Positions 41,539 to 58,388 of a stretch of 64,000 nucleotides of DNA are shown one piece after another. The stretch is from Candidatus Bathyarchaeia archaeon. Lineage in GTDB: Archaea > Thermoproteota > Bathyarchaeia > Bathyarchaeales > Bathycorpusculaceae. Both the position numbers and the translations under genes were made by a program. The notes under the pieces were generated by a model. That model worked only from the letters and a program-made list of their open reading frames with translations. It was not told the DNA's origin and did no database searches. Within the stretch, counting starts at the first letter, position 1. Every line of letters begins with the position of its first letter. The stretch lies in the NCBI GenBank assembly GCA_038882655.1, contig JAVZNT010000002.1, positions 1-64,000 on the forward strand, read 5' to 3'.

Positions 41539-42915
41539 TTATAGTACTATGATGACTGAAACGTCGTTAACATTTGTGCCCGTTGGACCTGTCAAAATTA
41601 GGTCGCCCAATTGGGAAAAGAAGCTATAAGAGTTGTTGTCTGTTAAGAAATTCTCAGCCCTAAGCCCTAAGGCTTCTGCTCTGGCTATGGTTTTTCCGTC
41701 GGCTATTGCTCCTGCTGCGTCTGTTGGTCCATCCACTCCATCCGTGCTTAATGAGGCTATAACGACGCCTTCCAAGCCCCTAATTTTCAATGCAGCTGCT
41801 AAGGCTATTTCTTGGTTTCTTCCACCCTTGCCTTTTCCAGTGACCGTGACTGTTGTTTCGCCTCCAGCCACTATGCCCGCCGGTTTTTTAACGGGGTTGC
41901 CAGAGGCGGAAATTTCACGGGCTAGCGAAGCCAGCACTGTTCCGATATGCCTTGCCTCGCCTTCTAGAAGCGATGTTAACAAGAGCGAGTTCAATCCTTC
42001 AGATTTTAGGATTTCACATGCTGCTAAGCTTGCAGCTCTATTGTTCCCAATAATGACGTTGAAAACCCTTTCGAAGGCTTCGTCATCTGCCTTTGGTGTT
42101 TCTGGAATAAGCCTCTTCTCCCCATCTGTCAAGACTTTCTTTATTGATATTGGAGCTCTATCCCACAAGCGATATTTCTTCAAGACTTTTATGGCGTCGC
42201 TAAAGGTTGTTGAATCTGGAACTGTTGGTCCGGAAGCAATAAAATCTAGCGGGTCGCCTAAAACATCTGATAGGATAAGGTTTAGGATTGTTGCGGGATA
42301 AGCCTTCTTTGCAAGCCATCCGCCCTTAAACTCTGAAATGTGTTTCCTAACAGTGTTTATCTCGTTTATTGTGGCGCCGCACTTTAGCAAGTCCTCTGTT
42401 ATTTGCCTCTTGTCAGCCATCGTTATCTCGCCTCTTGGCATCGGCATTAGGCTGGAGCCTCCGCCTGAAATTAAGCATATAATCAAGTCTTCTTCGCTGG
42501 CTTTTTCGGCTATTTCAAGCATTTTTCTTGTTCCTTCAACTCCGGATTCGTCGGGGATTGGGTGGCTTGCCCTATGAAGCCTAATTATGCTTGTTTTATG
42601 CTTGCTTTCTTTTGGAATGTTGACGAGTCCGCTTGTGATTTTGTCGCCTAAAATCTCTTCTAGAGCTTCAACCATTGAACCGCTTGCCTTTCCCCCGCCT
42701 ATTACGTATACATTCTTGAACTTTTTAAGGTTAAAAGCGTGTCCATCCACGTGGAGAATTGAGCCTTTAAGCCTAAGTTTTGATTTAATTATCGATTTTG
42801 GGTCTACAGCTTTTATGGCGGCTTCAAGGCTTTTTATGGCTAATTCTCTAGCTATTTTATCAAGGTGCGTTTCACTGTTCTGAATTAATTGTTCTAAATT
42901 CTTAATAATTGTCAT
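41539..42915 (-). CDS. Glycerate 2-kinase (MOFRL family)
   Basis: GGGKAS, SHPIPD, LISGGGSSL, GGETTV, GGRNQE, TDGVDG, TGTNVND. Confidence 0.93.
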   Translation of the reverse strand: MTIIKNLEQLIQNSETHLDKIARELAIKSLEAAIKAVDPKSIIKSKLRLKGSILHVDGHAFNLKKFKNVYVIGGGKASGSMVEALEEILGDKITSGLVNIPKESKHKTSIIRLHRASHPIPDESGVEGTRKMLEIAEKASEEDLIICLISGGGSSLMPMPRGEITMADKRQITEDLLKCGATINEINTVRKHISEFKGGWLAKKAYPATILNLILSDVLGDPLDFIASGPTVPDSTTFSDAIKVLKKYRLWDRAPISIKKVLTDGEKRLIPETPKADDEAFERVFNVIIGNNRAASLAACEILKSEGLNSLLLTSLLEGEARHIGTVLASLAREISASGNPVKKPAGIVAGGETTVTVTGKGKGGRNQEIALAAALKIRGLEGVVIASLSTDGVDGPTDAAGAIADGKTIARAEALGLRAENFLTDNNSYSFFSQLGDLILTGPTGTNVNDVSVIIVL

Positions 42916-43007
42916 TTTGAGGCACCGTCGTGGCTTTTAAAGTTGGGAAATCGTAAATGTAATAAGCTGAGTGTTAATAAAGTGTTTTGCACCGCACGGT
43001 GAACATT

Positions 43008-44015
43008 ATGGCAAAGCCTAAGGTCTACGTAACCCGCGAGCTTCCAGAAAGAGGCATGAAAATAATAAAGGAGCGCTTTGACGCTGAAGTCTGGCCTGAA
43101 TATGGTCCGCCGCCAAAAGCGGAAATAATAAGGAGAGCAAGAAATGTTGACGCCTTAGCCACGCTCTTGTCAGATAAGATTGACGCTGAAGTTTTTGACG
43201 CTGCACCTAAACTGAAAATTGTTGCTCAGATGGCTGTAGGCTTTGACAACATAGACGTTGCCGAAGCCACGAAAAGAGGCATATACGTGACAAACACTCC
43301 TGGCGTTTTAACCGAGACCACAGCGGATTTTGCTTGGGCTTTGTTGATGGCCATTGCGAGGCGTGTTGTTGAGGCGGATAAGTATGTGCGCACAGGACAG
43401 TGGAAGGTCAGCTGGCACCCGAGCATGCTTCTAGGTAGAGACATTTACGGCGCAACGTTGGGCATCGTGGGAGCGGGCAGAATAGGAATGGCTGTTGTGC
43501 GAAGGGCAAAGGGCTTCAGCATGAAAATCCTCTATTATGATGTTGTTCCAATGCCACCAGAAATAGAGAAGGAACTCGGCGCAAAACGTGTGGACTTGGA
43601 CACGCTTTTAAAAGAATCCGACTTTGTCAGCATTCATGTGCCTTTAATGAAGGAAACATACCACCTAATCAATGAAGAAAGGTTTAAACTGATGAAGAAG
43701 ACGGCTTACCTAATCAACAATTCCAGAGGACCAGTTGTGGATGAAAAAGCCCTTTACAAGGCGTTGAAGGAAGGGTGGATTGCAGGCGCAGCCCTAGACG
43801 TTTTTGAGCAAGAACCTACGCCAGTGGACAATCCTCTCCTTAAGCTTGACAACGTCGTTGTAGCACCCCACATTTCAAGTGCCAGCTATGAAACCCGCTC
43901 AAGGATGGCTGAGATGGTCGCGGAAAATTTAGTTGCCTTCTTTGAGGGAAGAACTCCACCGAACCTCGTTAACCCTGATGTCGTCAAGGTGCGCCCACTA
44001 TCCAAGCTCTTCTAA
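43008..44015 (+). CDS. gyaR: Glyoxylate/hydroxypyruvate reductase
   Basis: AVGFDNID, NTPGVL, GAGRIG, NSRG, DVFEQEP, PHISSA; likely ATG 43008. Confidence 0.9.
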   Translation: MAKPKVYVTRELPERGMKIIKERFDAEVWPEYGPPPKAEIIRRARNVDALATLLSDKIDAEVFDAAPKLKIVAQMAVGFDNIDVAEATKRGIYVTNTPGVLTETTADFAWALLMAIARRVVEADKYVRTGQWKVSWHPSMLLGRDIYGATLGIVGAGRIGMAVVRRAKGFSMKILYYDVVPMPPEIEKELGAKRVDLDTLLKESDFVSIHVPLMKETYHLINEERFKLMKKTAYLINNSRGPVVDEKALYKALKEGWIAGAALDVFEQEPTPVDNPLLKLDNVVVAPHISSASYETRSRMAEMVAENLVAFFEGRTPPNLVNPDVVKVRPLSKLF

Positions 44016-44104
44016 CATGCCTTTTTAATCCCTTTTAACTGTAATGGTTAAATACTCTGTTAATGTTACTTTCAATCTCCATCTTTCGGATGTTGGTGTT
44101 GCTG

Positions 44105-45283
44105 ATGGTTTCCATATTTGCAGATAGAATGGCATCTCTTGGAACTGAAACGGCTTTTGAAGTGCTTGCCCGTGCAAAGGCTCTTGAAAGGCAAGGCAAA
44201 AATATAATCCACCTAGAAATAGGCGAACCTGATTTTGATACGCCCAAAAACATTAAGGAGGCTGCTGTGAAGGCTCTCTATGACGGCTACACCCACTATG
44301 TGCCAGCGGCTGGCATCCCCGAACTGCGGGAAGCCATAGCCGAGTACATTTCAAAAACTAGGAAAATCCCAGTAAACCCAGAAGAAGTTGTTGTTACGCC
44401 CGGAGCCAAGCCAATAATGTTTTTCGCCATATTGGCATGTGTGGAGCGTGGCGAGGAAGTCTTATATCCGAATCCAGGTTTTCCAATCTACGAGTCCATG
44501 GTAAATTTTGTTGGAGCCAAACCTGTGCCCATTCCGCTCAAGGAGGAGAACGATTTCAGACTGGACCACGAGTATGTTAAGGCTAAGATAACCAAAAAGA
44601 CTAAAATGATTATTTTGAACTCGCCTGAAAACCCAACAGGCGGCGTTTTGACAAGGGAGGATTTGAAGGTTATAGCCGACTGCATAGCCAACAGAAACGA
44701 TGTTATAGTACTTTCAGACGAGATTTACAGCAGAATAATCTATGAAGGAACCCACGAAAGTATTGCCTCGCTCCCGGGAATGCGGGAGAAAACCATAATA
44801 TTGGATGGCTTTTCGAAGACCTACGCCATGACTGGCTGGAGACTTGGCTATGGAGTTATGCGGAAAGACCTAGCTGAAAAAATCACGCAGTTAATGATTA
44901 ATTCGAACTCTTGCACCTGTGCCTTCGTCCAAATGGCCGGAGTTGAAGCCCTAAAGGGTCCGCAAGATTCCGTTGACAAAATGGTTGCAGAGTTTAGAAA
45001 ACGAAGAGAAGTCATAGTTTCTGGCTTGAACAACATTAAAGGCATAACTTGCAAGAAGCCTAAAGGTGCCTTCTACGTCTTCCCAAACATAAAAGGCATT
45101 GGAAAGAAATCCAAAGAGTTTTCAGATTACTTGCTCGATGAGGTTGGTGTGGCTGTTCTGCCGGGCACTTCTTTTGGGAAGTATGGTGAGGGGTATCTGC
45201 GCATATCCTTTGCGAATTCTGTTGAGAACATTAAGAAAGCTTTAGACCGTATAAGCAAGGCTGTTGAAAAGCTGAAAAGTTAG
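44105..45283 (+). CDS. Class I/II PLP aminotransferase (aspartate/aromatic type)
   Basis: IGEPDF, NSPENPTG, SDEIY, FSKTYAMTGWRLG, GAFYVF; likely ATG 44105. Confidence 0.92.
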   Translation: MVSIFADRMASLGTETAFEVLARAKALERQGKNIIHLEIGEPDFDTPKNIKEAAVKALYDGYTHYVPAAGIPELREAIAEYISKTRKIPVNPEEVVVTPGAKPIMFFAILACVERGEEVLYPNPGFPIYESMVNFVGAKPVPIPLKEENDFRLDHEYVKAKITKKTKMIILNSPENPTGGVLTREDLKVIADCIANRNDVIVLSDEIYSRIIYEGTHESIASLPGMREKTIILDGFSKTYAMTGWRLGYGVMRKDLAEKITQLMINSNSCTCAFVQMAGVEALKGPQDSVDKMVAEFRKRREVIVSGLNNIKGITCKKPKGAFYVFPNIKGIGKKSKEFSDYLLDEVGVAVLPGTSFGKYGEGYLRISFANSVENIKKALDRISKAVEKLKS

Positions 45284-51293: not shown

Positions 51294-53960
51294 TTGGAGA
51301 AGGGGGTCTTGTTAAAGTTAAAATTGAATCGATTGTTTGCTCTGATTCTAATCTGCTTATTCATTTTGCCTATGTCAACTGTAAGTGTTTTAGATGTCCC
51401 GAGGAATTTGTCTAACACTACAGAGGCTATTATTATTTCGGAAGGCCATTCTATTGGTGTTCCATTTTATTATCAGGTGAAAACCTACTATTGTGGCCCA
51501 GCTGCTTTGCAAATGGTTTTTGACTATTTTGGTGAGAATATTTCCCAGTTTGAGATTGCAGATGTTGCGCGCACAGTGCCTTACGTGACTTATACTGATG
51601 AACTTAGGAGAGCGGCTCATTTTAGCAACATGAGCACTTCTATGGGAAGCGAAATGCCAGAAAACATAACCGGATACACTGCCAGAAAGTTAGGATACGT
51701 TGCTTTTGAAATGTTCGGTATAACGCTGGATGAGTTAAAGGCCCTCATTGATTGGGATTTTCCCGTAATCTTGCTCATGAGGTGGGTTCCAGGGGAACCA
51801 TATGGCCACTATAGAGTTGCTGTGGGCTATAATGCGACGCATATTTTCTTGCATGACCCATGGAATAATGTCCTTTGGGGCGGAGACTACGGCGGTCCGA
51901 ACTTGCCTATGAATTACACCTTCTTTAACGAAATGTGGAACTATTCTGGTCGCTGGGGGTTATTTGTTTCTCCATGGAATGTTAAAATTGAAACGCCAAG
52001 CAACGTTTACGTTGGCCAAACCTTTACGGTTACGGTAACTGTTTCCTATGTTTGTCCTCCTCAAACTCCCATTTACATTTATGACACCTCTTCATGTAAC
52101 GCGACAATAACCTTGCCGGAAGGATTAGTCCTCGCTGATAGTGAATCATTAACTAAAAACTTGGGAGAAATTTACGCTGGCGGTAGGGCTCAAACTTCTT
52201 GGATGGTGAGGGCTGAGCGTCTAGGAAACTATTCGATATCAGTTGAGGCGGAAGGGAAAATTACTGGATTTGTTGGAGGGAAGGCTGATGTTGGCCCAAG
52301 CTACCAATATGAAGATAGGATTGGCGGATACGGCTCAAGCTTTGTAAATGCAGAAGTTGCCTCGCACATATACATCGACTCAATCAAGCCAACTGAAGGT
52401 ACTCCGGGAACAGAAGCCTTCATTTTCGGAGGGGGAGCTACTCCGAATGGAACAGTTGTTGCTCTTCTTAGTGGACCAGAAAACGTAACAGTTATAGTTA
52501 ACATGACTTTAGGATGGACGGTAGCAGACACCGACGGGTTCTGGTCCATACCCTTCATCGTGCCTGATGCGCCCCCAGGAGAATACAAAATTTTTGTTCT
52601 CGATAACTCCACCCAAACAGGCGATGAAACTAAATTTTACGTGCTGCCGCCAACTCCAACCCAAATAAAGATAGAGAGTATTAAACCAGTTGAAGGATAT
52701 CCCAATACTCTGGTTTTCATTGCCGGGCACGGAGCGACCCAAAAGGGCGAAGTGAAAATCTACTTTGACAATTTAAATGTTGCAAACATAATAGCATACG
52801 ACGATGGAGGTTGGTCAACAATCTTCACCGTTCCGAATGTTAGCCCTGGAAACTACACAATTTTAGCATTAGACGTTGCATCAAGCACCTCCGATACTGT
52901 GACGTTTAGAGTGCTGGAAATCATTCAACGAAACGTTGGAGTCAAAGAAGGCGACTGGGCAAAATATAACATAACCTATTATTACTCAACAAATGATCCC
53001 GCAGTGCCAATTTCTCCACCTCCCATCTTCGCTGATATAGATTATTTATTAATAAGAATCATTTCAGTTGTGGGAACCAACGTCACCTATGAGTCTGTTA
53101 TGCACTATAAGAATGGCACTGAACAGAGGAGCACTTCGTGGCTAGATATAACTACAGGCTTAACTTACTATGGAATTACGATGCCCTATGGACCAATTAT
53201 TGCGGCAAACCTTACAGTAGGCGATCAAGTGTATCTCAATGCTTACGCCCCAACAATAAATTCAACAACTATAGCGTTCTACGCAGGTTTGCAAAGGGAG
53301 GTCAATTCTCTCCTATTAAAACCCGAAATCACCATTCCAGGCTATTATTATAAAAATGTTGTGGATTTTGAAATCCACTGGGACAGGATAAGCGGCATAT
53401 TATGCGAACAAAGAGTGAACGCCAGCTACATAAACATTGAAAAAGGTTACGAGACCAGCATGTTTCTCCAAGTAGTTATAACAGAAACAAACATTTGGGC
53501 CAAACCAAGCATTATCAACGTGAAGGTAGGCTTCTGCCCGCACACGTTATGTTTGAAGAGTAGAGGCAGATGGGTAATTTGTATTGTTAGGCTTCCTGAG
53601 GGCTATACCGTGAAAGATGTTGATACGTCAACATTAATGCTAAACGGCACTATCAAGGGCGAAGTCATCAATAAAGCTGAAGGAAGTCGCTATTTAATAG
53701 TTAAATTTGACAGAAAGGCCATCATTGGACTCATTTCTAGGGAGATCGTTTGTGATAAGAAGTTTAGAGAAGCATCGCTAACAATAACTGGCGAATTCAA
53801 AGATGGAACAACATTTTCTGGTACAGCCAACATAAGAATAGTCATGCCGCCAAACAAACACGCCAAAGCTAAAGAATACATCACTTGCCCGCACTTCAAA
53901 AGATTGTACTTAATTTTCTACGGTGTTCCCAATTACTGCAAAATTGATAGCAAAGAATAA
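51294..53960 (+). CDS. Secreted/surface C39-like cysteine peptidase with Ig/IPT-like domains
   Basis: Signal peptide; Q..YYCGPAAL, GHYRVAVGY, HDPW triad; many NxS/T sequons. Confidence 0.8.
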   Translation: MEKGVLLKLKLNRLFALILICLFILPMSTVSVLDVPRNLSNTTEAIIISEGHSIGVPFYYQVKTYYCGPAALQMVFDYFGENISQFEIADVARTVPYVTYTDELRRAAHFSNMSTSMGSEMPENITGYTARKLGYVAFEMFGITLDELKALIDWDFPVILLMRWVPGEPYGHYRVAVGYNATHIFLHDPWNNVLWGGDYGGPNLPMNYTFFNEMWNYSGRWGLFVSPWNVKIETPSNVYVGQTFTVTVTVSYVCPPQTPIYIYDTSSCNATITLPEGLVLADSESLTKNLGEIYAGGRAQTSWMVRAERLGNYSISVEAEGKITGFVGGKADVGPSYQYEDRIGGYGSSFVNAEVASHIYIDSIKPTEGTPGTEAFIFGGGATPNGTVVALLSGPENVTVIVNMTLGWTVADTDGFWSIPFIVPDAPPGEYKIFVLDNSTQTGDETKFYVLPPTPTQIKIESIKPVEGYPNTLVFIAGHGATQKGEVKIYFDNLNVANIIAYDDGGWSTIFTVPNVSPGNYTILALDVASSTSDTVTFRVLEIIQRNVGVKEGDWAKYNITYYYSTNDPAVPISPPPIFADIDYLLIRIISVVGTNVTYESVMHYKNGTEQRSTSWLDITTGLTYYGITMPYGPIIAANLTVGDQVYLNAYAPTINSTTIAFYAGLQREVNSLLLKPEITIPGYYYKNVVDFEIHWDRISGILCEQRVNASYINIEKGYETSMFLQVVITETNIWAKPSIINVKVGFCPHTLCLKSRGRWVICIVRLPEGYTVKDVDTSTLMLNGTIKGEVINKAEGSRYLIVKFDRKAIIGLISREIVCDKKFREASLTITGEFKDGTTFSGTANIRIVMPPNKHAKAKEYITCPHFKRLYLIFYGVPNYCKIDSKE
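52365..52915 (+). repeat. Tandem duplicated IPT/TIG-like domain within the C39 protein
   Basis: IDSIKPTEG.PGT..GGATPNG..WSIPFIVPD.PPGEYKI versus IESIKPVEG.PNT..HGATQKG..WSTIFTVPNVSPGNYTI; boundaries approximate. Confidence 0.7.
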
Positions 53961-53980: not shown

Positions 53981-54613
53981 TTAATGATTGTTCATGTTTT
54001 TAATTCTGTTTATGAACTCCTCCCTCTCCTTTTCCACTTCTGCTATCCTCTGTTTTAGGAATTCGAGTTCTTCAGAGATTTCTTCAAGCCAGCCTTTTAT
54101 GGCTTTTCTGCTCTCTTCAGTTGTCATTTCTGCGAGGTATTGTGAAACGTCTTGTGGTTTGCGTCTTTCTAGGGTGGCTAGTGGATAGTTAATTTTTGGT
54201 GGTTTTAGGAAGGGAAAAAAGTGTCTTGTGGTTCTTGGTTCCATAAGCTTCCCGCTTAAAGCTGTAGCAACCACGTTTTCGGCTGTTATTGACGGGGTTG
54301 AGTTTCCGATGTATCGGTGTATGCGTCTTCTGCCAATGCGAACTTGTGGATTTTGGAAAATGTTAACTTGTAGAACTGGTATTTGCGTGTAGCCCAAGTT
54401 TTTTAGGGCAAGCCACCGGTGCATTCCGTCAAGTATGACATTTGTCTTTTCATCGGTAACTATTGGGTATTTTAGAACGCCATCCTTTAGAATCTCCTTT
54501 TTCAACATCTCCAAATATAGAGGAGAACCTTTCTCGTGGGGCTTTAAGACGTCAATTGGCAAAAGCTCGATTTTAAACTCTTTTATCTTTTCAGCTTGAG
54601 TTGTGGTTGTCAA
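53981..54613 (-). CDS. ParB/sulfiredoxin-fold protein, SerK/SbnI-like putative serine kinase
   Basis: LKPHE, YPIV, ILDGMHRW.AL..LG, RTTRH; no HTH; C-terminal coiled coil; 21 nt downstream of trpB2. Confidence 0.7.
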   Translation of the reverse strand: MTTTTQAEKIKEFKIELLPIDVLKPHEKGSPLYLEMLKKEILKDGVLKYPIVTDEKTNVILDGMHRWLALKNLGYTQIPVLQVNIFQNPQVRIGRRRIHRYIGNSTPSITAENVVATALSGKLMEPRTTRHFFPFLKPPKINYPLATLERRKPQDVSQYLAEMTTEESRKAIKGWLEEISEELEFLKQRIAEVEKEREEFINRIKNMNNH

Positions 54614-54634
54614 CTATCACCCGCTCTTTAAAGG

Positions 54635-55996
54635 TTATTTAACAATTGTTGGAACCTCGATTTTTTCCGGCTCGTAATCCACGAGTTTTCCGGCCAAGAA
54701 CTGTTCGTAGGCACCCAAATCCAATAGTCCGTGTCCACTGTAGTTCATGGCTATAACCTTTTTCTCACTCGTCTTTCGGCAACGCAGAGCCTCGTCTATT
54801 ACAAATTTTAGGCTGTGGGCAGTTTCTGGTGCTATTATCAAGCCCTCTGCTTGAGCTAGTATATGGGCTGCTTGGAAGACTTCTGTTTGGTGGTAGGCAA
54901 TTGAATGCATGTACCCTTTCTGGATTAGGTAGGATATTGAAGGCGCCATTCCATGGTACCTTAAGCCTCCGGCGTGGATTGGCGGACAAGCATAGCCGTG
55001 TCCTATTGTTAGCATTTTGAGCAGTGGCGTTAATTGGGCTGTGTCTCCAAAGTCGTATGTATAGACACCTTTTGTTGTGTGGGGAACAGCTTTAGACTCG
55101 CAAGCCACAAACTCCGTTTCAGCCTTGCCCTTAAGCTTATCCATCATGAACGGATAGCAGAAACCAGCATAATTAGAGCCTCCGCCTATGCACCCGCAGA
55201 CAACGTCTGGGTACTCTCCAATAATCTCAAACTGTTTTTTTGCTTCCAAGCCTATGATGGTCTGATGCAACAGCACATGGTTTAGAACCGAGCCTAAAGA
55301 ATACCTTGTATCCTCATGTGCAATTGTATCCTCAAGCGCCTCGCTTATGGCAATGCCCAAAGTTCCAGGATGATTTGGGTTCTCCTTCAAGAGTTTTCTG
55401 CCAAAGTTTGTCTGATCGCTTGGCGAAGGAAACATTTCAGCCCCATATAACTGTGCTATAGTTCTTCTGCCTGGCTTCTGCTGGTAGCTGACGCGGACCA
55501 TGTATATGCGGCACTTTAAACCGAAGATTGTGCATGCGAAAGCTAGAGCTGTGCCCCACTGTCCAGCACCAGTCTCTGTCACAAGTCTTTTTATGCCTTG
55601 TTCCTTGTTGTAGTATGCTTGGGCTATGGCAGTGTTCGTCTTGTGGCTTCCAGTAGGGCTGAAATTCTCGCATTTAAAGTAGATTTTCGCCGGTGTTTTG
55701 AGAAACCTTTCAAGCCTCCTAGCTCTATAAAGCGGCGTTGGACGGGGCAGTCGCAAATAGGCGTCTAAAACCTCCTCTGGAATTTTTATGAAACGTTCTG
55801 TGGAAACCTCCTGCCTAATCAGTTCTTTTGCAAATATTCTTTCCAAGAGTTTTGGGTCTATTGGCGTTAGGGTTGTAGGGTCTAATGGTGGCGGAAGCGG
55901 CTCTGGCAAATCTGCTTGAATGTTGTACCATGCTGTGGGTATTTCATCAGCGCTCAGCATCGTGAAGTACTCGCCTTTTTGAACTTTAAGGCTCAT
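54635..55996 (-). CDS. trpB2: Tryptophan synthase beta chain 2 (TrpB2)
   Basis: WYNIQADLP, RPTPLYRA, GSHKTNTA, TETGAGQWG, GGGSN, HAGGLRYHG, SGHGLLD. Confidence 0.96.
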   Translation of the reverse strand: MSLKVQKGEYFTMLSADEIPTAWYNIQADLPEPLPPPLDPTTLTPIDPKLLERIFAKELIRQEVSTERFIKIPEEVLDAYLRLPRPTPLYRARRLERFLKTPAKIYFKCENFSPTGSHKTNTAIAQAYYNKEQGIKRLVTETGAGQWGTALAFACTIFGLKCRIYMVRVSYQQKPGRRTIAQLYGAEMFPSPSDQTNFGRKLLKENPNHPGTLGIAISEALEDTIAHEDTRYSLGSVLNHVLLHQTIIGLEAKKQFEIIGEYPDVVCGCIGGGSNYAGFCYPFMMDKLKGKAETEFVACESKAVPHTTKGVYTYDFGDTAQLTPLLKMLTIGHGYACPPIHAGGLRYHGMAPSISYLIQKGYMHSIAYHQTEVFQAAHILAQAEGLIIAPETAHSLKFVIDEALRCRKTSEKKVIAMNYSGHGLLDLGAYEQFLAGKLVDYEPEKIEVPTIVK

Positions 55997-56009
55997 TTTA
56001 CATCTCCTC

Positions 56010-56082
56010 AGTACATTTTAGTACATGTGGGCATATAATAAAACAGTGAACATATTTATACTTTATTGCACAAAAAAGTACA
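56010..56082. promoter_or_regulatory. TRP-box array (TrpY-type operator) in the divergent trpB2/trpY promoter
   Basis: AGTACA-N4-AGTACA (56010-56025); TGAACA-N4-TATACT-N4-TGCACA-N4-AGTACA (56047-56082); TRP box consensus TGTACA. Confidence 0.8.
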
Positions 56083-56098
56083 TTAGGCAGACGGAAAC

Positions 56099-56602
56099 AT
56101 GTGGAACACGATAAAAAAGCATTTTGAAAATTATCCGGAACGCCTAAAAGTAGCCAGAATCCTCGTAGAAAATGGGTTGAGCGTGAAAAATGGAAAGATA
56201 TATCTTAATGAGATAGAGATTCCACCAACCCGCATAGCAAGAGTGGCGAGTGTAGATAGAAGAACAGTAAACGAGACAATAAACACTATAAGGGCAAACC
56301 GCGAGCTACGCCTAATATTCGAAGGTTTAAGGTCTGCTGGGCATTCCTTAAAGGAAATAGCAAAACACTTGGAGCTCGGTGTGGTGGAAATAACTCCGGT
56401 AGACGCCAGAATACCCGGCATATTAGCAAATTCAGCCATGATACTTGCAAAAAGTGGCTTGAGTATAAGGCAGGCTATTGTTGATGATCCGGAGCTTTCT
56501 CCAGAGCCGAAGCTGACACTTATTGTGGAGAAGAAAGTTCCAGGTGAGCTTATCCCAGAATTCTTAAAGGTTAAGGGCGTTGCCAAAGTCTCTGTCTACT
56601 AG
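56099..56602 (+). CDS. trpY: TrpY-like tryptophan-responsive repressor (HTH + ACT, COG2150)
   Basis: MW..I...F...P, IARVASVDRRTV HTH, PGILA, SIRQAIVDDPEL ACT; divergent from trpB2 across TRP boxes. Confidence 0.82.
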   Translation: MWNTIKKHFENYPERLKVARILVENGLSVKNGKIYLNEIEIPPTRIARVASVDRRTVNETINTIRANRELRLIFEGLRSAGHSLKEIAKHLELGVVEITPVDARIPGILANSAMILAKSGLSIRQAIVDDPELSPEPKLTLIVEKKVPGELIPEFLKVKGVAKVSVY

Positions 56603-58388
56603 ACATGAGGGTTTTCAAAGGCTGTTATAATCCACTTTTCTCCACGCTTTTCAATATGCACAGTTACTGTGTGGTCCTCCTGAGTCGCCATCAACTTGTT
56701 CCATTGAGCAGTTGGAAGGTCTTTTGGAGTGGCTTCCACCCACTCGTATGTCGCGTTATCCAGGCGGAGAACAATGTGGGTTGTTCCATCCTCCACATAC
56801 TCGTATTTGCCCTTAACTTTTGCGCTAACCTCTATTTCGGTTATTATGCCGAAAAGTTTTAGAAATTCCTGCCGAGTGGCGCGTACAAGCTGTTCGCTTG
56901 TCATGCCCTCCTCATGCATTTTTATGGCTATTTTGCTTGTTTCCTCCGCATCGACTATGGCAAAACCAGCAAGATAGATGGTTTCCTCCTTTCCACTTAT
57001 GGCTTCCCGCCAGTAAATGGGCACATACCATGCAAGTCTGTAGTTGTCAGGGGATATTTGCACCGGATATAGGAGCGGCATTTCAGCGTCATACATGCCA
57101 GCTGCGGGTTTTGGAAGCCTTCCTTCAACGAGGTCTTCGGCTGTCATGCCTGAGATGTAGTTGGCTTGCTTGAAATCGTAGAAGAATATGCTGTTTCTTG
57201 TGGCTTTGAAAACGCCTGAAAGGGTTCGTCTATTGCCAATAGGGTTCACGCAGATTAAGGCTACGACATCACCTGTTTCTGGGTCTACGATGTAGCGTGT
57301 GTCCTCTGTCATCTCGAAGCGTTCTCGGCTGGGTGGGATAAACCACAGGAAGCCTCCAGCCCAATAATCAAAGCCTGTGCCCCTTTTGAAGTTCCCCATC
57401 TCGTTTATCATTTCTTCAAGCCAGTTCTCATCGTAAACTTGCGTAACCCAGTCTGGGATTTGAAGGAGCGACTCCGCTTGAGGGTAAAGGCTGCCCTCTT
57501 CATCATAAATTAATGGGGTCTCATAACGCCTGATAAGGTCGAAGCCAACATAATAGCGGGTTACGACATACGCTGTTTCGTTTGTTTCGAGATTCCATGT
57601 CACGTAGGCTACACCGTAACGATTTGAAATGTCGTTCATATAAGAGCGGAAGTGAACGTTATGGTCAAACCATAAAGATTCGCCAACCGCAAATTTCCTC
57701 TGCAAAATTTTAGGAGGCGCCAACGGATCTGTGGCGTCTATTACGACAAAGCCCTTCACATAGTTTTCAGCTATAACGTTTGTTGAACCTATAACCGCAA
57801 CCCAGACCAGTTTGCCTTCCGGAGTTTTTGTAATGTGGCATCCTAAAACTTGAGTGTTGCTTCCAAACTCCGACATGTGACGTCGGGCTACTGAAATGGC
57901 AAGCTCCTCAGTGACAAGGCGCACCATGTTGTCCGGAATTTCCCTATCAAAGGGCAGTCCAGAACTCATATGGATAAAGTTGTTAAAGTATGCGGCGTTA
58001 GCCACCCTTTGAACCTGCCAAAAAACAATCATTGAGGATGCTGCAAGCAAGTAAACGAGAAACAAATGCCTAAAAGCCTCGCCCTAGCCTTCAATGAAAT
58101 CTTCCACGGCAAACGCCTATAATGATAATAATAGTTCTTCTCAGCTTCTTCTGGACCAATCGGCTTTATGGAAAAGGCTGACTCCGCAAAGGCGACAAAC
58201 AACCTAAGGAAAACAAGAAGATACACAAATACACTTAATGGAGGCTGGGAAAACTGGATTATAAAGAATAGAAACAAGCCTAATAGAAGCGAAATTATCC
58301 GTCTAGACTTTCTCCAGCTGTCTCTCTGTGGAGGTATTGGAATATACCAAACCACCGCCCAAATTAAAAGGAATATGAATAGGTTCAC
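56599..58388 (-). pseudogene. Membrane-anchored hypothetical protein split by a 1-nt frameshift near 58065
   Basis: ORF 58388-58029 (TM helices) and ORF 58065-56599 join as ..LLGI|LFLVYLL.. if one T is restored in GGCATTTGTTT. Confidence 0.65.

Follow-up and report, generated by a model that had tools for sequence, protein, structure and literature searches.

A candidate ParB-fold serine kinase encoded with TrpB2 behind a TrpY-type control region in Bathyarchaeia

What is a gene that resembles a chromosome-partition gene doing directly downstream of a tryptophan synthase gene? The question is raised by a locus at positions 53,981 to 56,602 of a stretch of 64,000 nucleotides (the window), which is contig C2:1-64000 (JAVZNT010000002.1) of the Candidatus Bathyarchaeia archaeon genome G000, a metagenome-assembled genome (MAG) of 1.02 Mb in 27 contigs that is 84% complete. 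On the reverse strand, trpB2 (54635-55996; 453 aa, a stand-alone TrpB-like enzyme dependent on pyridoxal phosphate, PLP) is followed, after a spacer of 21 nt (54614-54634), by the gene of a 210-aa protein that we call mini-SerK (53981-54613; TTG start in the list of open reading frames, ORFs). On the forward strand, divergent from trpB2 across a control region of 102 nt (55997-56098), lies trpY (56099-56602), which encodes a 167-aa regulator of the TrpY family. A sequence-only reading of the locus had suggested that the ParB-like gene supplies O-phospho-L-serine (O-phosphoserine) to TrpB2 in an indole-salvage operon repressed by tryptophan. As far as computation goes, the grouping of the protein and the linkage of the genes support this suggestion, and we give it a probability of roughly 0.6. 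The sequence statements behind it, that is, the genes, the spacer with its Shine-Dalgarno (SD)-like GGGTGA, the protein motifs and the divergent trpY, were all confirmed.

A shortened SerK-type protein behind trpB2

The translation of mini-SerK holds three motifs, LKPHEKGS (H26, E27), ILDGMHRW (D62...R66) and PRTTRHFFPF (R127-H131). Residues ~12-90 make up an N-domain with H26-E27 and D62-G-M-H-R66, residues 110-148 a helix and strand bearing P126-R-T-T-R-H131, and residues 165-208 a long conserved helix. When the protein was compared with NCBIfam, the best match was SerK (NF053625, E 4.3e-14, 52.2 bits against a cut-off of 380), found in two stretches, and the second was SbnI (NF033589, E 1.2e-8, 34.6 bits against a cut-off of 350), found in residues 14-85 only. 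The parB_part and Noc models gave E values of 1.6e-3 and 0.03, the cut-offs for partition proteins were failed by TIGR00180 (18.2 vs 58.45 bits) and by PF02195 ParB_N (22 vs 26.3), and no helix-turn-helix (HTH) or other DNA-binding family was found with Pfam and NCBIfam. In a sequence search of the Protein Data Bank (PDB), SbnI (E 6.6e-8), SerK and 1vk1 alone reached E values of about 7e-8 to 1e-6, and Noc gave 0.27. True SerKs from five Thermoproteota genomes score 408-458 bits on NF053625, compared with 52 for mini-SerK. Scores of 52 against 380 and of 35 against 350 mean that the protein is not an orthologue of SerK or SbnI; it is a reduced version that carries an additional helix.

A profile of 31 orthologues (62-100% identity) was aligned with SerK. 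Residues 11-88 correspond to SerK 14-95 and residues 110-148 to SerK 204-241, while SerK 96-203 is unmatched both in this alignment and in the fold comparison. E27 aligns with SerK E30 (PHE against PHE30), DGMHRW with DGHHRW, and PRTTRHFFPF, which in the profile reads PRsTRHffPF, with PKTTRHVLPF. According to the titles of the PDB entries, the SerK complexes with phosphoserine were deposited with E30 mutated; the roles that we give to the other SerK motifs are general background or inferred. H26, E27, D62-W67, T129-R130-H131, F132, F133 and F135 are invariant over the 31 orthologues, and so are W175, E178, E181, E182, F185, L186, E192, V193 and E196 of the C-terminal helix. Measured against SerK, the catalytic Glu, the DGxHR and the TTRH of the signature are thus all present in the aligned sequence.

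The fold comparison gives the same grouping. An AlphaFold2 model built from the orthologue alignment (mean pLDDT 85.2, pTM 0.78) shows a ParB/Srx-type N-domain, a short helix-strand element with the TTRH, and a single helix at 165-208. Searched against the PDB with Foldseek, its nine best matches were SerK, 1vk1 and SbnI (E 4e-8 to 3e-6), and the best ParB-type match followed at 4.7e-4. The Z values of VIA-align were 17.0 for 1vk1, 16.1-12.5 for SerK and 14.2-11.3 for SbnI, whereas Noc, sulfiredoxin, ParB, KorB and PadC, which match the N-domain of the model alone, do not exceed 7.1. With the SerK, 1vk1 and SbnI structures only 126-140 residues align, mini-SerK having the N-domain and the C-terminal TTRH strand and lacking the middle of the C-domain. 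The comparison with profiles and structures, one of the checks proposed by the sequence-only reading, therefore sides with SerK and SbnI and not with CTP-binding ParB, in NCBIfam E values, PDB sequence matches, Foldseek and Z (17.0-11.3 vs at most 7.1) alike. Judged by profile and modelled fold, the 210-aa protein falls into the branch of the ParB fold that holds SerK and SbnI, with the catalytic hallmarks kept, and we consider it very probable that it is a small-molecule kinase of the SerK type.

The long C-terminal helix has no counterpart in SerK or SbnI in the VIA-align superpositions, and in the model its conserved acidic residues suggest a protein-protein contact. A complex prediction for TrpB2 with mini-SerK (score 0.00, mark 0.32) was made without controls and speaks neither for nor against binding. 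As a separate observation, the N-terminal ~75 residues of the O-phosphoserine sulfhydrylase of Aeropyrum pernix (3vsc_B, 1wkv_B) match the mini-SerK model weakly (Z 5.1-5.4 over 71-74 residues); this may be chance, or may be all that is left of a kinase-type module in a further enzyme that uses O-phosphoserine.

It had also been predicted that automatic annotation would call the gene a partition protein, and such names do occur. Among 120 listed clusters, out of 615 proteins at E <= 0.001, orthologues are named 'ParB N-terminal domain-containing protein', 'hypothetical protein' and, once, 'ParB-like chromosome segregation protein Spo0J'. The close protein relatives of the window genes all carry the label Candidatus Bathyarchaeia or Bathyarchaeota.

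Operon, control region and conservation of the linkage

By its family scores the 453-aa protein is TrpB2, distinct from canonical TrpB1: it reaches 695 bits on NF009057 (cut-off 366) and 682 on TIGR01415 (cut-off 519), and just 159 bits on the canonical trpB model TIGR00263, against 392. Among solved structures the nearest is 6hul_B (513 bits), followed by 4qys_B and 6hte_B (~468-469 bits); the deposited names of 6hul, 4qys and 6hte are 'Tryptophan synthase beta chain 1' and 'beta chain 2', and we take all three to be Sulfolobus solfataricus TrpB2 entries. TrpB2 enzymes are reported to depend on O-phosphoserine and to serve indole salvage (PMC11917138, citing Busch 2014). The 167-aa protein matches NF053754 TrpY_fam with 195 bits against 180, residues 2-164 lying on profile positions 1-163 of 163, which marks it as a full-length regulator of this family.

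Within the operon, the trpB2 stop codon TAA occupies 54637-54635, and the GGGTGA (54622-54617) ends 3 nt ahead of the TTG of mini-SerK. Between 53700 and 56700 there is no terminator-like site, and promoter-like sites are not in excess. In other genomes the distance from trpB2 to the kinase gene could be extrapolated from tblastn alignments, and these estimates fall between -11 and +31 nt in 69 of the 75 loci described below; the remaining six are -152, 81, 93, 115, 121 and 241 nt. None of the sequencing runs listed as containing the locus is recorded as RNA. Of four runs compared with the locus, two that are probably DNA gave short, partly divergent contig pieces. The two RNA runs, one of them searched as raw reads, gave no match to the locus, which says nothing on transcription or co-transcription.

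The control region holds a near-invariant core (56048-56083) that reads ATGTACtTTTTTGTGCAATAAAGTATAAATATGTTC toward trpB2 (also written ATGTACnTTTTTGTGCAATAAAGTATAAATATGTTC), with a TATA-like GTATAAATA between TGTAC/TGTGCA boxes. Extra GTACA boxes stand immediately upstream of trpB2 (56011-56015 and 56021-56025), and one on the trpY side (56078-56082). An exact copy of the 12-mer AAAGTATAAATA is present in 67 of the 68 other regions between trpY and trpB2, the 68th having AAAGCTTAAATA. A (T/C)GTAC or GTAC(A/T) box occurs on the trpY side in 65/67 regions, and in 48/67 the stretch from the TATA-like element to trpB2 holds one or two GTAC boxes. The TrpY of Methanothermobacter binds TGTACA 'TRP boxes', represses in response to tryptophan and regulates trpB2. 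From its sequence, the control region looks like a shared archaeal promoter flanked by putative operator boxes.

We then asked whether the arrangement is conserved. The relative set consisted of 61 genomes including G000, of which 21 carry a mini-SerK orthologue (at least 59% identity), and ~12.6 kb was fetched around the orthologues of the 20 positive relatives other than G000. A pattern scan of GTDB with one genome per species gave 80 loci, 75 of them (72 MAGs) of the orthologue type with 51-86% identity. All 20 relatives have trpY divergent from trpB2 and then the mini-SerK gene. The neighbourhood survey that had been proposed as a check was equally clear in the GTDB loci: trpB2 lies directly upstream on the same strand in 75/75 and a divergent trpY is present in 68/75, the other seven stopping at a contig edge within or just ahead of trpB2. 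These two sets overlap and their genomes are kin, so that the counts are not independent events; the arrangement is nevertheless far beyond chance, and the pattern spans several families of the order. Wherever the locus extends far enough, trpY is divergent from trpB2 and 74-99% identical. The kinase (51-86% identity) evolves faster than trpB2 (77-96% in 70 loci), and it is kept in all 75 loci; in the other five the adjacent trpB2 is of a divergent type with 48-57% identity. The 75 loci are labelled Bathyarchae* or 'uncultured archaeon' save one, a contig of a 'Candidatus Acidiferrales bacterium' MAG (L107, DASPPK010000009.1), which holds the full module with genes 79-82% identical to the archaeal ones and is probably a mis-binned Bathyarchaeia contig. 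The five other loci of the scan (Thermofilaceae, Thermoprotei and Thermoplasmata; 35-49% identity over parts) have no trpB2 or trpY nearby.

An alternative gene order was found in G201 (L133:5293-5721) and G034 (L134:5464-5922), where trpY is divergent from a short SerK-like gene and trpB2 follows. The short protein (142 or 152 aa) is 36-39% identical to mini-SerK, has no C-terminal helix, keeps GHE, DGHHR and PPKSTWH, and resembles the kinase module of the fusion protein (see below) more than it does mini-SerK. The adjacent trpB2 is divergent as well (57-59% identity). A non-orthologous module in a second gene order with the same partners is, as judged from the sequences, our strongest comparative argument for a functional tie.

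In order to see how far the pairing extends in the phylum, we took a sample of 301 Thermoproteota genomes, of which 147 have SerK-like matches and 224 have TrpB2 over the cut-off. Adjacency was judged by eye among the matches listed (12 SerK and 129 TrpB2 matches lie outside them), and in this list it occurs in G000, G025 and G041 with the orthologue type and in G201 with the short type. In G333, whose family is a distant one within the phylum, a gene resembling trpY (33%) is divergent from trpB2 (63%) (L136, G333:C4:8000-11905), which indicates that the trpY-trpB2 pairing is older and wider than the addition of the kinase. A 983-aa frame around this TrpB2 was considered as a fusion and rejected as an ORF-calling artefact across the antisense trpY-like gene.

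The outer neighbours of the module are variable. In the window it is flanked by a gene for an 888-aa protein whose N-terminal domain is C39-peptidase-like and which has many N-x-S/T sites (51294-53960, forward strand) and by a gene for a 488-aa protein that matches nothing in Pfam or NCBIfam (56599-58065, reverse strand). The latter gene is present in 6/20 relatives and the C39-like gene in 1/20.

Host pathways and paralogues of the kinase module

The tryptophan pathway was searched in G000 and in G004, G013, G021 and G030 (these four 94-98% complete), with 14 control genomes in which each gene was found every time (14/14) and was over the cut-off in 13 or 14. TrpA, canonical TrpB (TrpB1), indole-3-glycerol phosphate synthase (IGPS, TrpC) and TrpD were not found over the cut-off in any of the five genomes (5/5). 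These five module-bearing organisms thus appear, from their gene content, unable to make tryptophan de novo. That they lack the biosynthesis genes yet keep TrpY and an indole-condensing TrpB2 fits salvage, and with TrpA, TrpB1, TrpC and TrpD undetectable the indole would come from outside the cell. Over the 61 genomes of the relative set, TrpA is over the cut-off in 20, mini-SerK is present in 21 and both occur together in three (Fisher p 0.043, which carries little weight in genomes that are kin). A second TrpB2-type match is present in G000, G004, G013 and G021, and G030 has one match. The paralogue in G000 (C2:96056-97354, L051:6056-7354) lies outside the window; it encodes 432 aa, scores 583 bits on NF009057, is 52% identical to the window protein and adjoins genes for flap endonuclease-1 and protein-L-isoaspartate methyltransferase (PIMT), with no trpY or SerK-like neighbour.

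Searches for SerB in the genus, for SerC (TIGR01364) and for SepRS gave nothing over the cut-off, and judged by these models no other biosynthetic source of O-phosphoserine is evident. The only SerA-like gene, ~10 kb away in the window, was considered as a link to the phosphoserine pathway and rejected, the protein being a glyoxylate reductase (537 bits vs 455). It belongs to a cluster at 41539-45283 consisting of a glycerate 2-kinase-like gene (reverse strand), the glyoxylate reductase gene (forward) and an aspartate/class-I aminotransferase-like gene (forward). Four relatives also have this cluster, at a distance of 8-25 kb from the trpB2 module; by its gene content the cluster may serve a non-phosphorylated serine/glycerate route.

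Outside the window, G000 encodes a second protein with the kinase module (C1:58353-60077, L052:6353-8077). It is a 574-aa fusion of a SerK-like with a CysK/CysM-like part. The first ~270 residues are two tandem SerK/SbnI-like modules of ~140 residues each, of which only the first keeps HE, DGEHR and PKTTCH, and residues 287-560 form the CysK/CysM-like PLP enzyme (TIGR01136, 192 bits, below the cut-off). The combination of ParB_N and PALP domains occurs in well over 100 protein clusters of Bathyarchaeia, labelled 'pyridoxal-phosphate dependent enzyme' or 'cysteine synthase/O-phosphoserine sulfhydrylase/cystathionine beta-synthase', and in some relatives a ThiS-like domain replaces the kinase part. 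A literature search on a kinase-CysK fusion returned nothing relevant, and the main text of PMC12704722 contains no PLP fusion. By its domains the 574-aa protein probably combines a serine kinase with an O-phosphoserine sulfhydrylase in one chain, and by analogy such a fusion would be expected if the module makes O-phosphoserine for its partner enzyme. It has parallels in the pairs SerK/CysK of Thermococcus (Makino 2016) and SbnI/SbnA.

Proposed function, competing explanations and significance

We propose that TrpY represses its own gene and the trpB2/mini-SerK operon from the shared 102-nt region when tryptophan is plentiful, as the analogy to the characterised TrpY would have it, and that TrpB2 and mini-SerK would be made together when tryptophan is scarce. 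Mini-SerK would then phosphorylate free L-serine to O-phosphoserine with ADP, ATP or CTP as the nucleotide, with Glu27 as the putative catalytic base and with DGMHR and P-R-T-T-R-H presumably holding the nucleotide and the substrate. TrpB2, if it shares the co-substrate preference of its relatives, would condense O-phosphoserine with indole to L-tryptophan and phosphate. The salvage part of this proposal gains from the missing TrpA, TrpB1, TrpC and TrpD, from the second arrangement with a short SerK-like gene and from the CysK/CysM-like fusion.

Several points weigh against the proposal. The SerK and SbnI equivalog cut-offs are missed widely (52/380 and 35/350 bits), and the unmatched SerK 96-203 amounts to ~100 residues of its C-terminal half, so that substrate recognition must differ if this segment carries the serine-binding residues. 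In the relative set, 22/61 genomes have a TrpB2 above 677 bits like that of the window and no mini-SerK orthologue, which means that TrpB2 is not strictly dependent on mini-SerK. One of the same genus, G001, has trpY and trpB2 (95%) with no kinase gene downstream (L135, G001:C1:66000-77000); there ~215 nt separate trpB2 from the next gene, and the genome has TrpA. Conversely, G002, G009 and G025 carry the module and TrpA together. Among the matches listed for the 301 genomes, adjacency is confined to Bathyarchaeia, and the absences of SerA, SerB and SerC rest on single models and on MAGs. An archaeal 'SerK-like' protein has been reported to bind CTP and not ATP (PMC12704722). Finally, in a library of representatives at 50% identity, the proteins that, orthologues aside, come nearest to mini-SerK over its whole length, helix included (30-39% identity), often carry another enzyme as a fusion partner. 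In P0125, P0128, P0131, P0135 and P0220 the partners are nucleotidyltransferase, cytidylyltransferase/NMNAT-like, asparagine-synthase-like (AsnB-like) and MTA/SAH-nucleosidase domains, the nucleotidyltransferases being of the sugar-1-phosphate or cytidylyl type. Judging from these partners, the module family probably phosphorylates several different substrates, and with relatives of this kind serine as the substrate of mini-SerK rests on gene context. The same fusions hint that small ParB-fold kinases form a wider family, as yet uncharacterised.

As an alternative, the protein could be a SerK-type kinase acting on L-threonine, homoserine or another hydroxy compound, or a regulator or TrpA-like activator that contacts TrpB2 through its acidic helix. 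The varied substrates suggested by the fused relatives and the loss of SerK 96-203 favour the former, and for the latter it can be said that the invariant residues of the helix are of the surface type, as in a protein contact, and that SerK and SbnI have no such helix. However, the trpB2-linked short genes of G201 and G034 do not have this helix at all and keep the three catalytic motifs. Within the fold class, the characterised proteins that have these motifs are all serine kinases, the paralogue fused to a CysK/CysM-like enzyme indicates the same product, and the known co-substrate of TrpB2 is, according to PMC11917138, exactly what a serine kinase makes. We therefore consider this alternative unlikely, if still a serious one. 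A kinase that works in reverse, from O-phosphoserine and ADP to serine, or that assimilates serine in general and is not dedicated to TrpB2, is a good deal harder to defend and seems to us very unlikely. It would agree with the lack of a SerB over the cut-off in the genus, with the proposal that SbnI-like DUF1015 kinases substitute for SerB (GapMind 2026, PMC13759103) and with the report that the SerK of Thermococcus kodakarensis also serves serine assimilation (Makino 2016). On the other hand, SerA or SerC for making O-phosphoserine was not detected, the kinase gene stands with trpB2 under a TrpY-type region and not with serine genes in 75/75 loci, and a second kinase paralogue is present for the cysteine branch.

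Could the protein, as its database names imply, be a non-enzymatic ParB-type protein, that is, a CTP switch, a DNA-binding partition protein or a transcription factor like SbnI? Canonical ParB has an arginine-rich GERR patch, which binds CTP, at the position equivalent to DGxHR, whereas in mini-SerK DGMHRW stands at the position of SerK DGHHRW. The weak ParB_N and parB_part matches and the NCBIfam name of SbnI, a bifunctional transcriptional regulator and O-phospho-L-serine synthase, speak for such a role, as does the CTP bound by the SerK-like protein of PMC12704722. Nevertheless, Pfam and NCBIfam detect no HTH or other DNA-binding family in it, and ParB, Noc and KorB match the N-domain alone with Z of at most 7.1, compared with 11-17 for the kinases. 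The catalytic Glu is invariant, no parA adjoins the gene, and the locus already has a regulator in TrpY. Of the alternatives this one appears to us the least probable.

The serine-kinase reading also has precedents. SbnI of Staphylococcus uses ATP and reportedly feeds O-phosphoserine to SbnA, a CysK-like synthase for the precursor of the siderophore staphyloferrin B. There, as here, the gene of a ParB-fold serine kinase lies beside that of the PLP enzyme it supplies, with the same operon logic. SbnI differs from mini-SerK in being bacterial and ~254 aa long, in its own C-terminal domain and in the regulatory role given by its NCBIfam name, and the partner of mini-SerK is TrpB2. A second precedent is SerK (T. 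kodakarensis TK0378, PDB 5x0b-5x0k; Pyrococcus furiosus 1vk1). The fold is shared (Z 12.5-17.0 over 126-138 residues, 26-29% identity), as are the H-E, DGxHRW and P-(K/R)-T-T-R-H-x-x-P-F motifs, and SerK was originally annotated as ParB too. Thermococcus SerK is ADP-dependent and feeds O-phosphoserine to CysK (Makino 2016), a fold-type II PLP enzyme; TrpB2 has the same PLP fold type as the CysK partners and reportedly takes serine in the same activated form (PMC11917138). Mini-SerK differs in its length (210 vs 242 aa), in having no match to SerK 96-203, in the additional C-terminal helix of 45 residues and in its place in a trpB2 operon with TrpY, without linkage to cys or ser genes.

With the canonical CTP-dependent DNA clamps ParB, Spo0J and Noc, mini-SerK has the ParB/Srx N-terminal fold in common (Z 6.5-7.1 over 82-88 residues), but it lacks an HTH, a ParB-type C-terminal dimerisation domain and a ParA neighbour and has DGxHR and the catalytic Glu. 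The DUF1015 'SerBK' proteins, a remote SbnI-like family, have been proposed from gene neighbourhood to interconvert serine and phosphoserine, but they are a separate bacterial family linked to serA and serC, proposed as SerB substitutes with no tie to tryptophan (PMC13759103). Compared with the solved TrpB2s, the window protein is of the same family and comes with a putative kinase of its own in a genome without TrpA, TrpB1, TrpC and TrpD. The window TrpY resembles that of Methanothermobacter in its full-length family match and in a divergent promoter where TGTAC(A)-type boxes recur around a TATA element, and differs in facing only the trpB2/kinase pair, in genomes without a trp biosynthesis operon.

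That a ParB-fold serine kinase supplies O-phosphoserine to a neighbouring PLP beta-replacement enzyme is already known from SbnI/SbnA and SerK/CysK. What appears to be new is the TrpB2 partner with TrpY-type control, the miniature architecture and a clade-wide module in Bathyarchaeia without a trp operon. A full-text search, which left subscription journals and supplements outside its scope, found no paper tying a serine kinase, or any dedicated O-phosphoserine source, to TrpB2, and neither tryptophan nor TrpB comes up in the main texts of PMC12704722 and PMC13759103, two recent surveys that deal with SerK-like proteins.

TrpB2 is widespread (224/301 sampled Thermoproteota) and is reported to prefer O-phosphoserine. 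The operon pairing makes both the source of this substrate and the reason for the preference directly testable with two proteins, serine, a nucleotide and indole. If our reading holds, mini-SerK would be the smallest known ParB-fold serine kinase, and the ParB, hypothetical and Spo0J names on the 120 listed orthologue clusters would be corrected. The compact kinase and TrpB2, as a thermophile pair, could also be of use in making tryptophan analogues.

A broader idea may be put forward tentatively, with somewhat less than even confidence. The minimal module of ~140 residues could be a dedicated 'serine activator' for each O-phosphoserine-dependent PLP beta-replacement enzyme of Bathyarchaeia, tied to the CysM-like enzyme by fusion and to TrpB2 by the TrpY operon, the latter pairing having come about in two separate arrangements. 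Phosphorylation of serine would then replace O-acetylation generally, and the tryptophan auxotrophs would live on indole from their community by the two-enzyme route from serine over O-phosphoserine to tryptophan. Were this so, it would give a physiological rationale for the puzzling preference of TrpB2 for O-phosphoserine. For the organisms themselves, the salvage reading, if true, would mean that uncultured Bathyarchaeia, which are abundant, probably need indole or tryptophan from outside. This would matter for cross-feeding in hot springs and sediments as well as for efforts to bring these archaea into culture.

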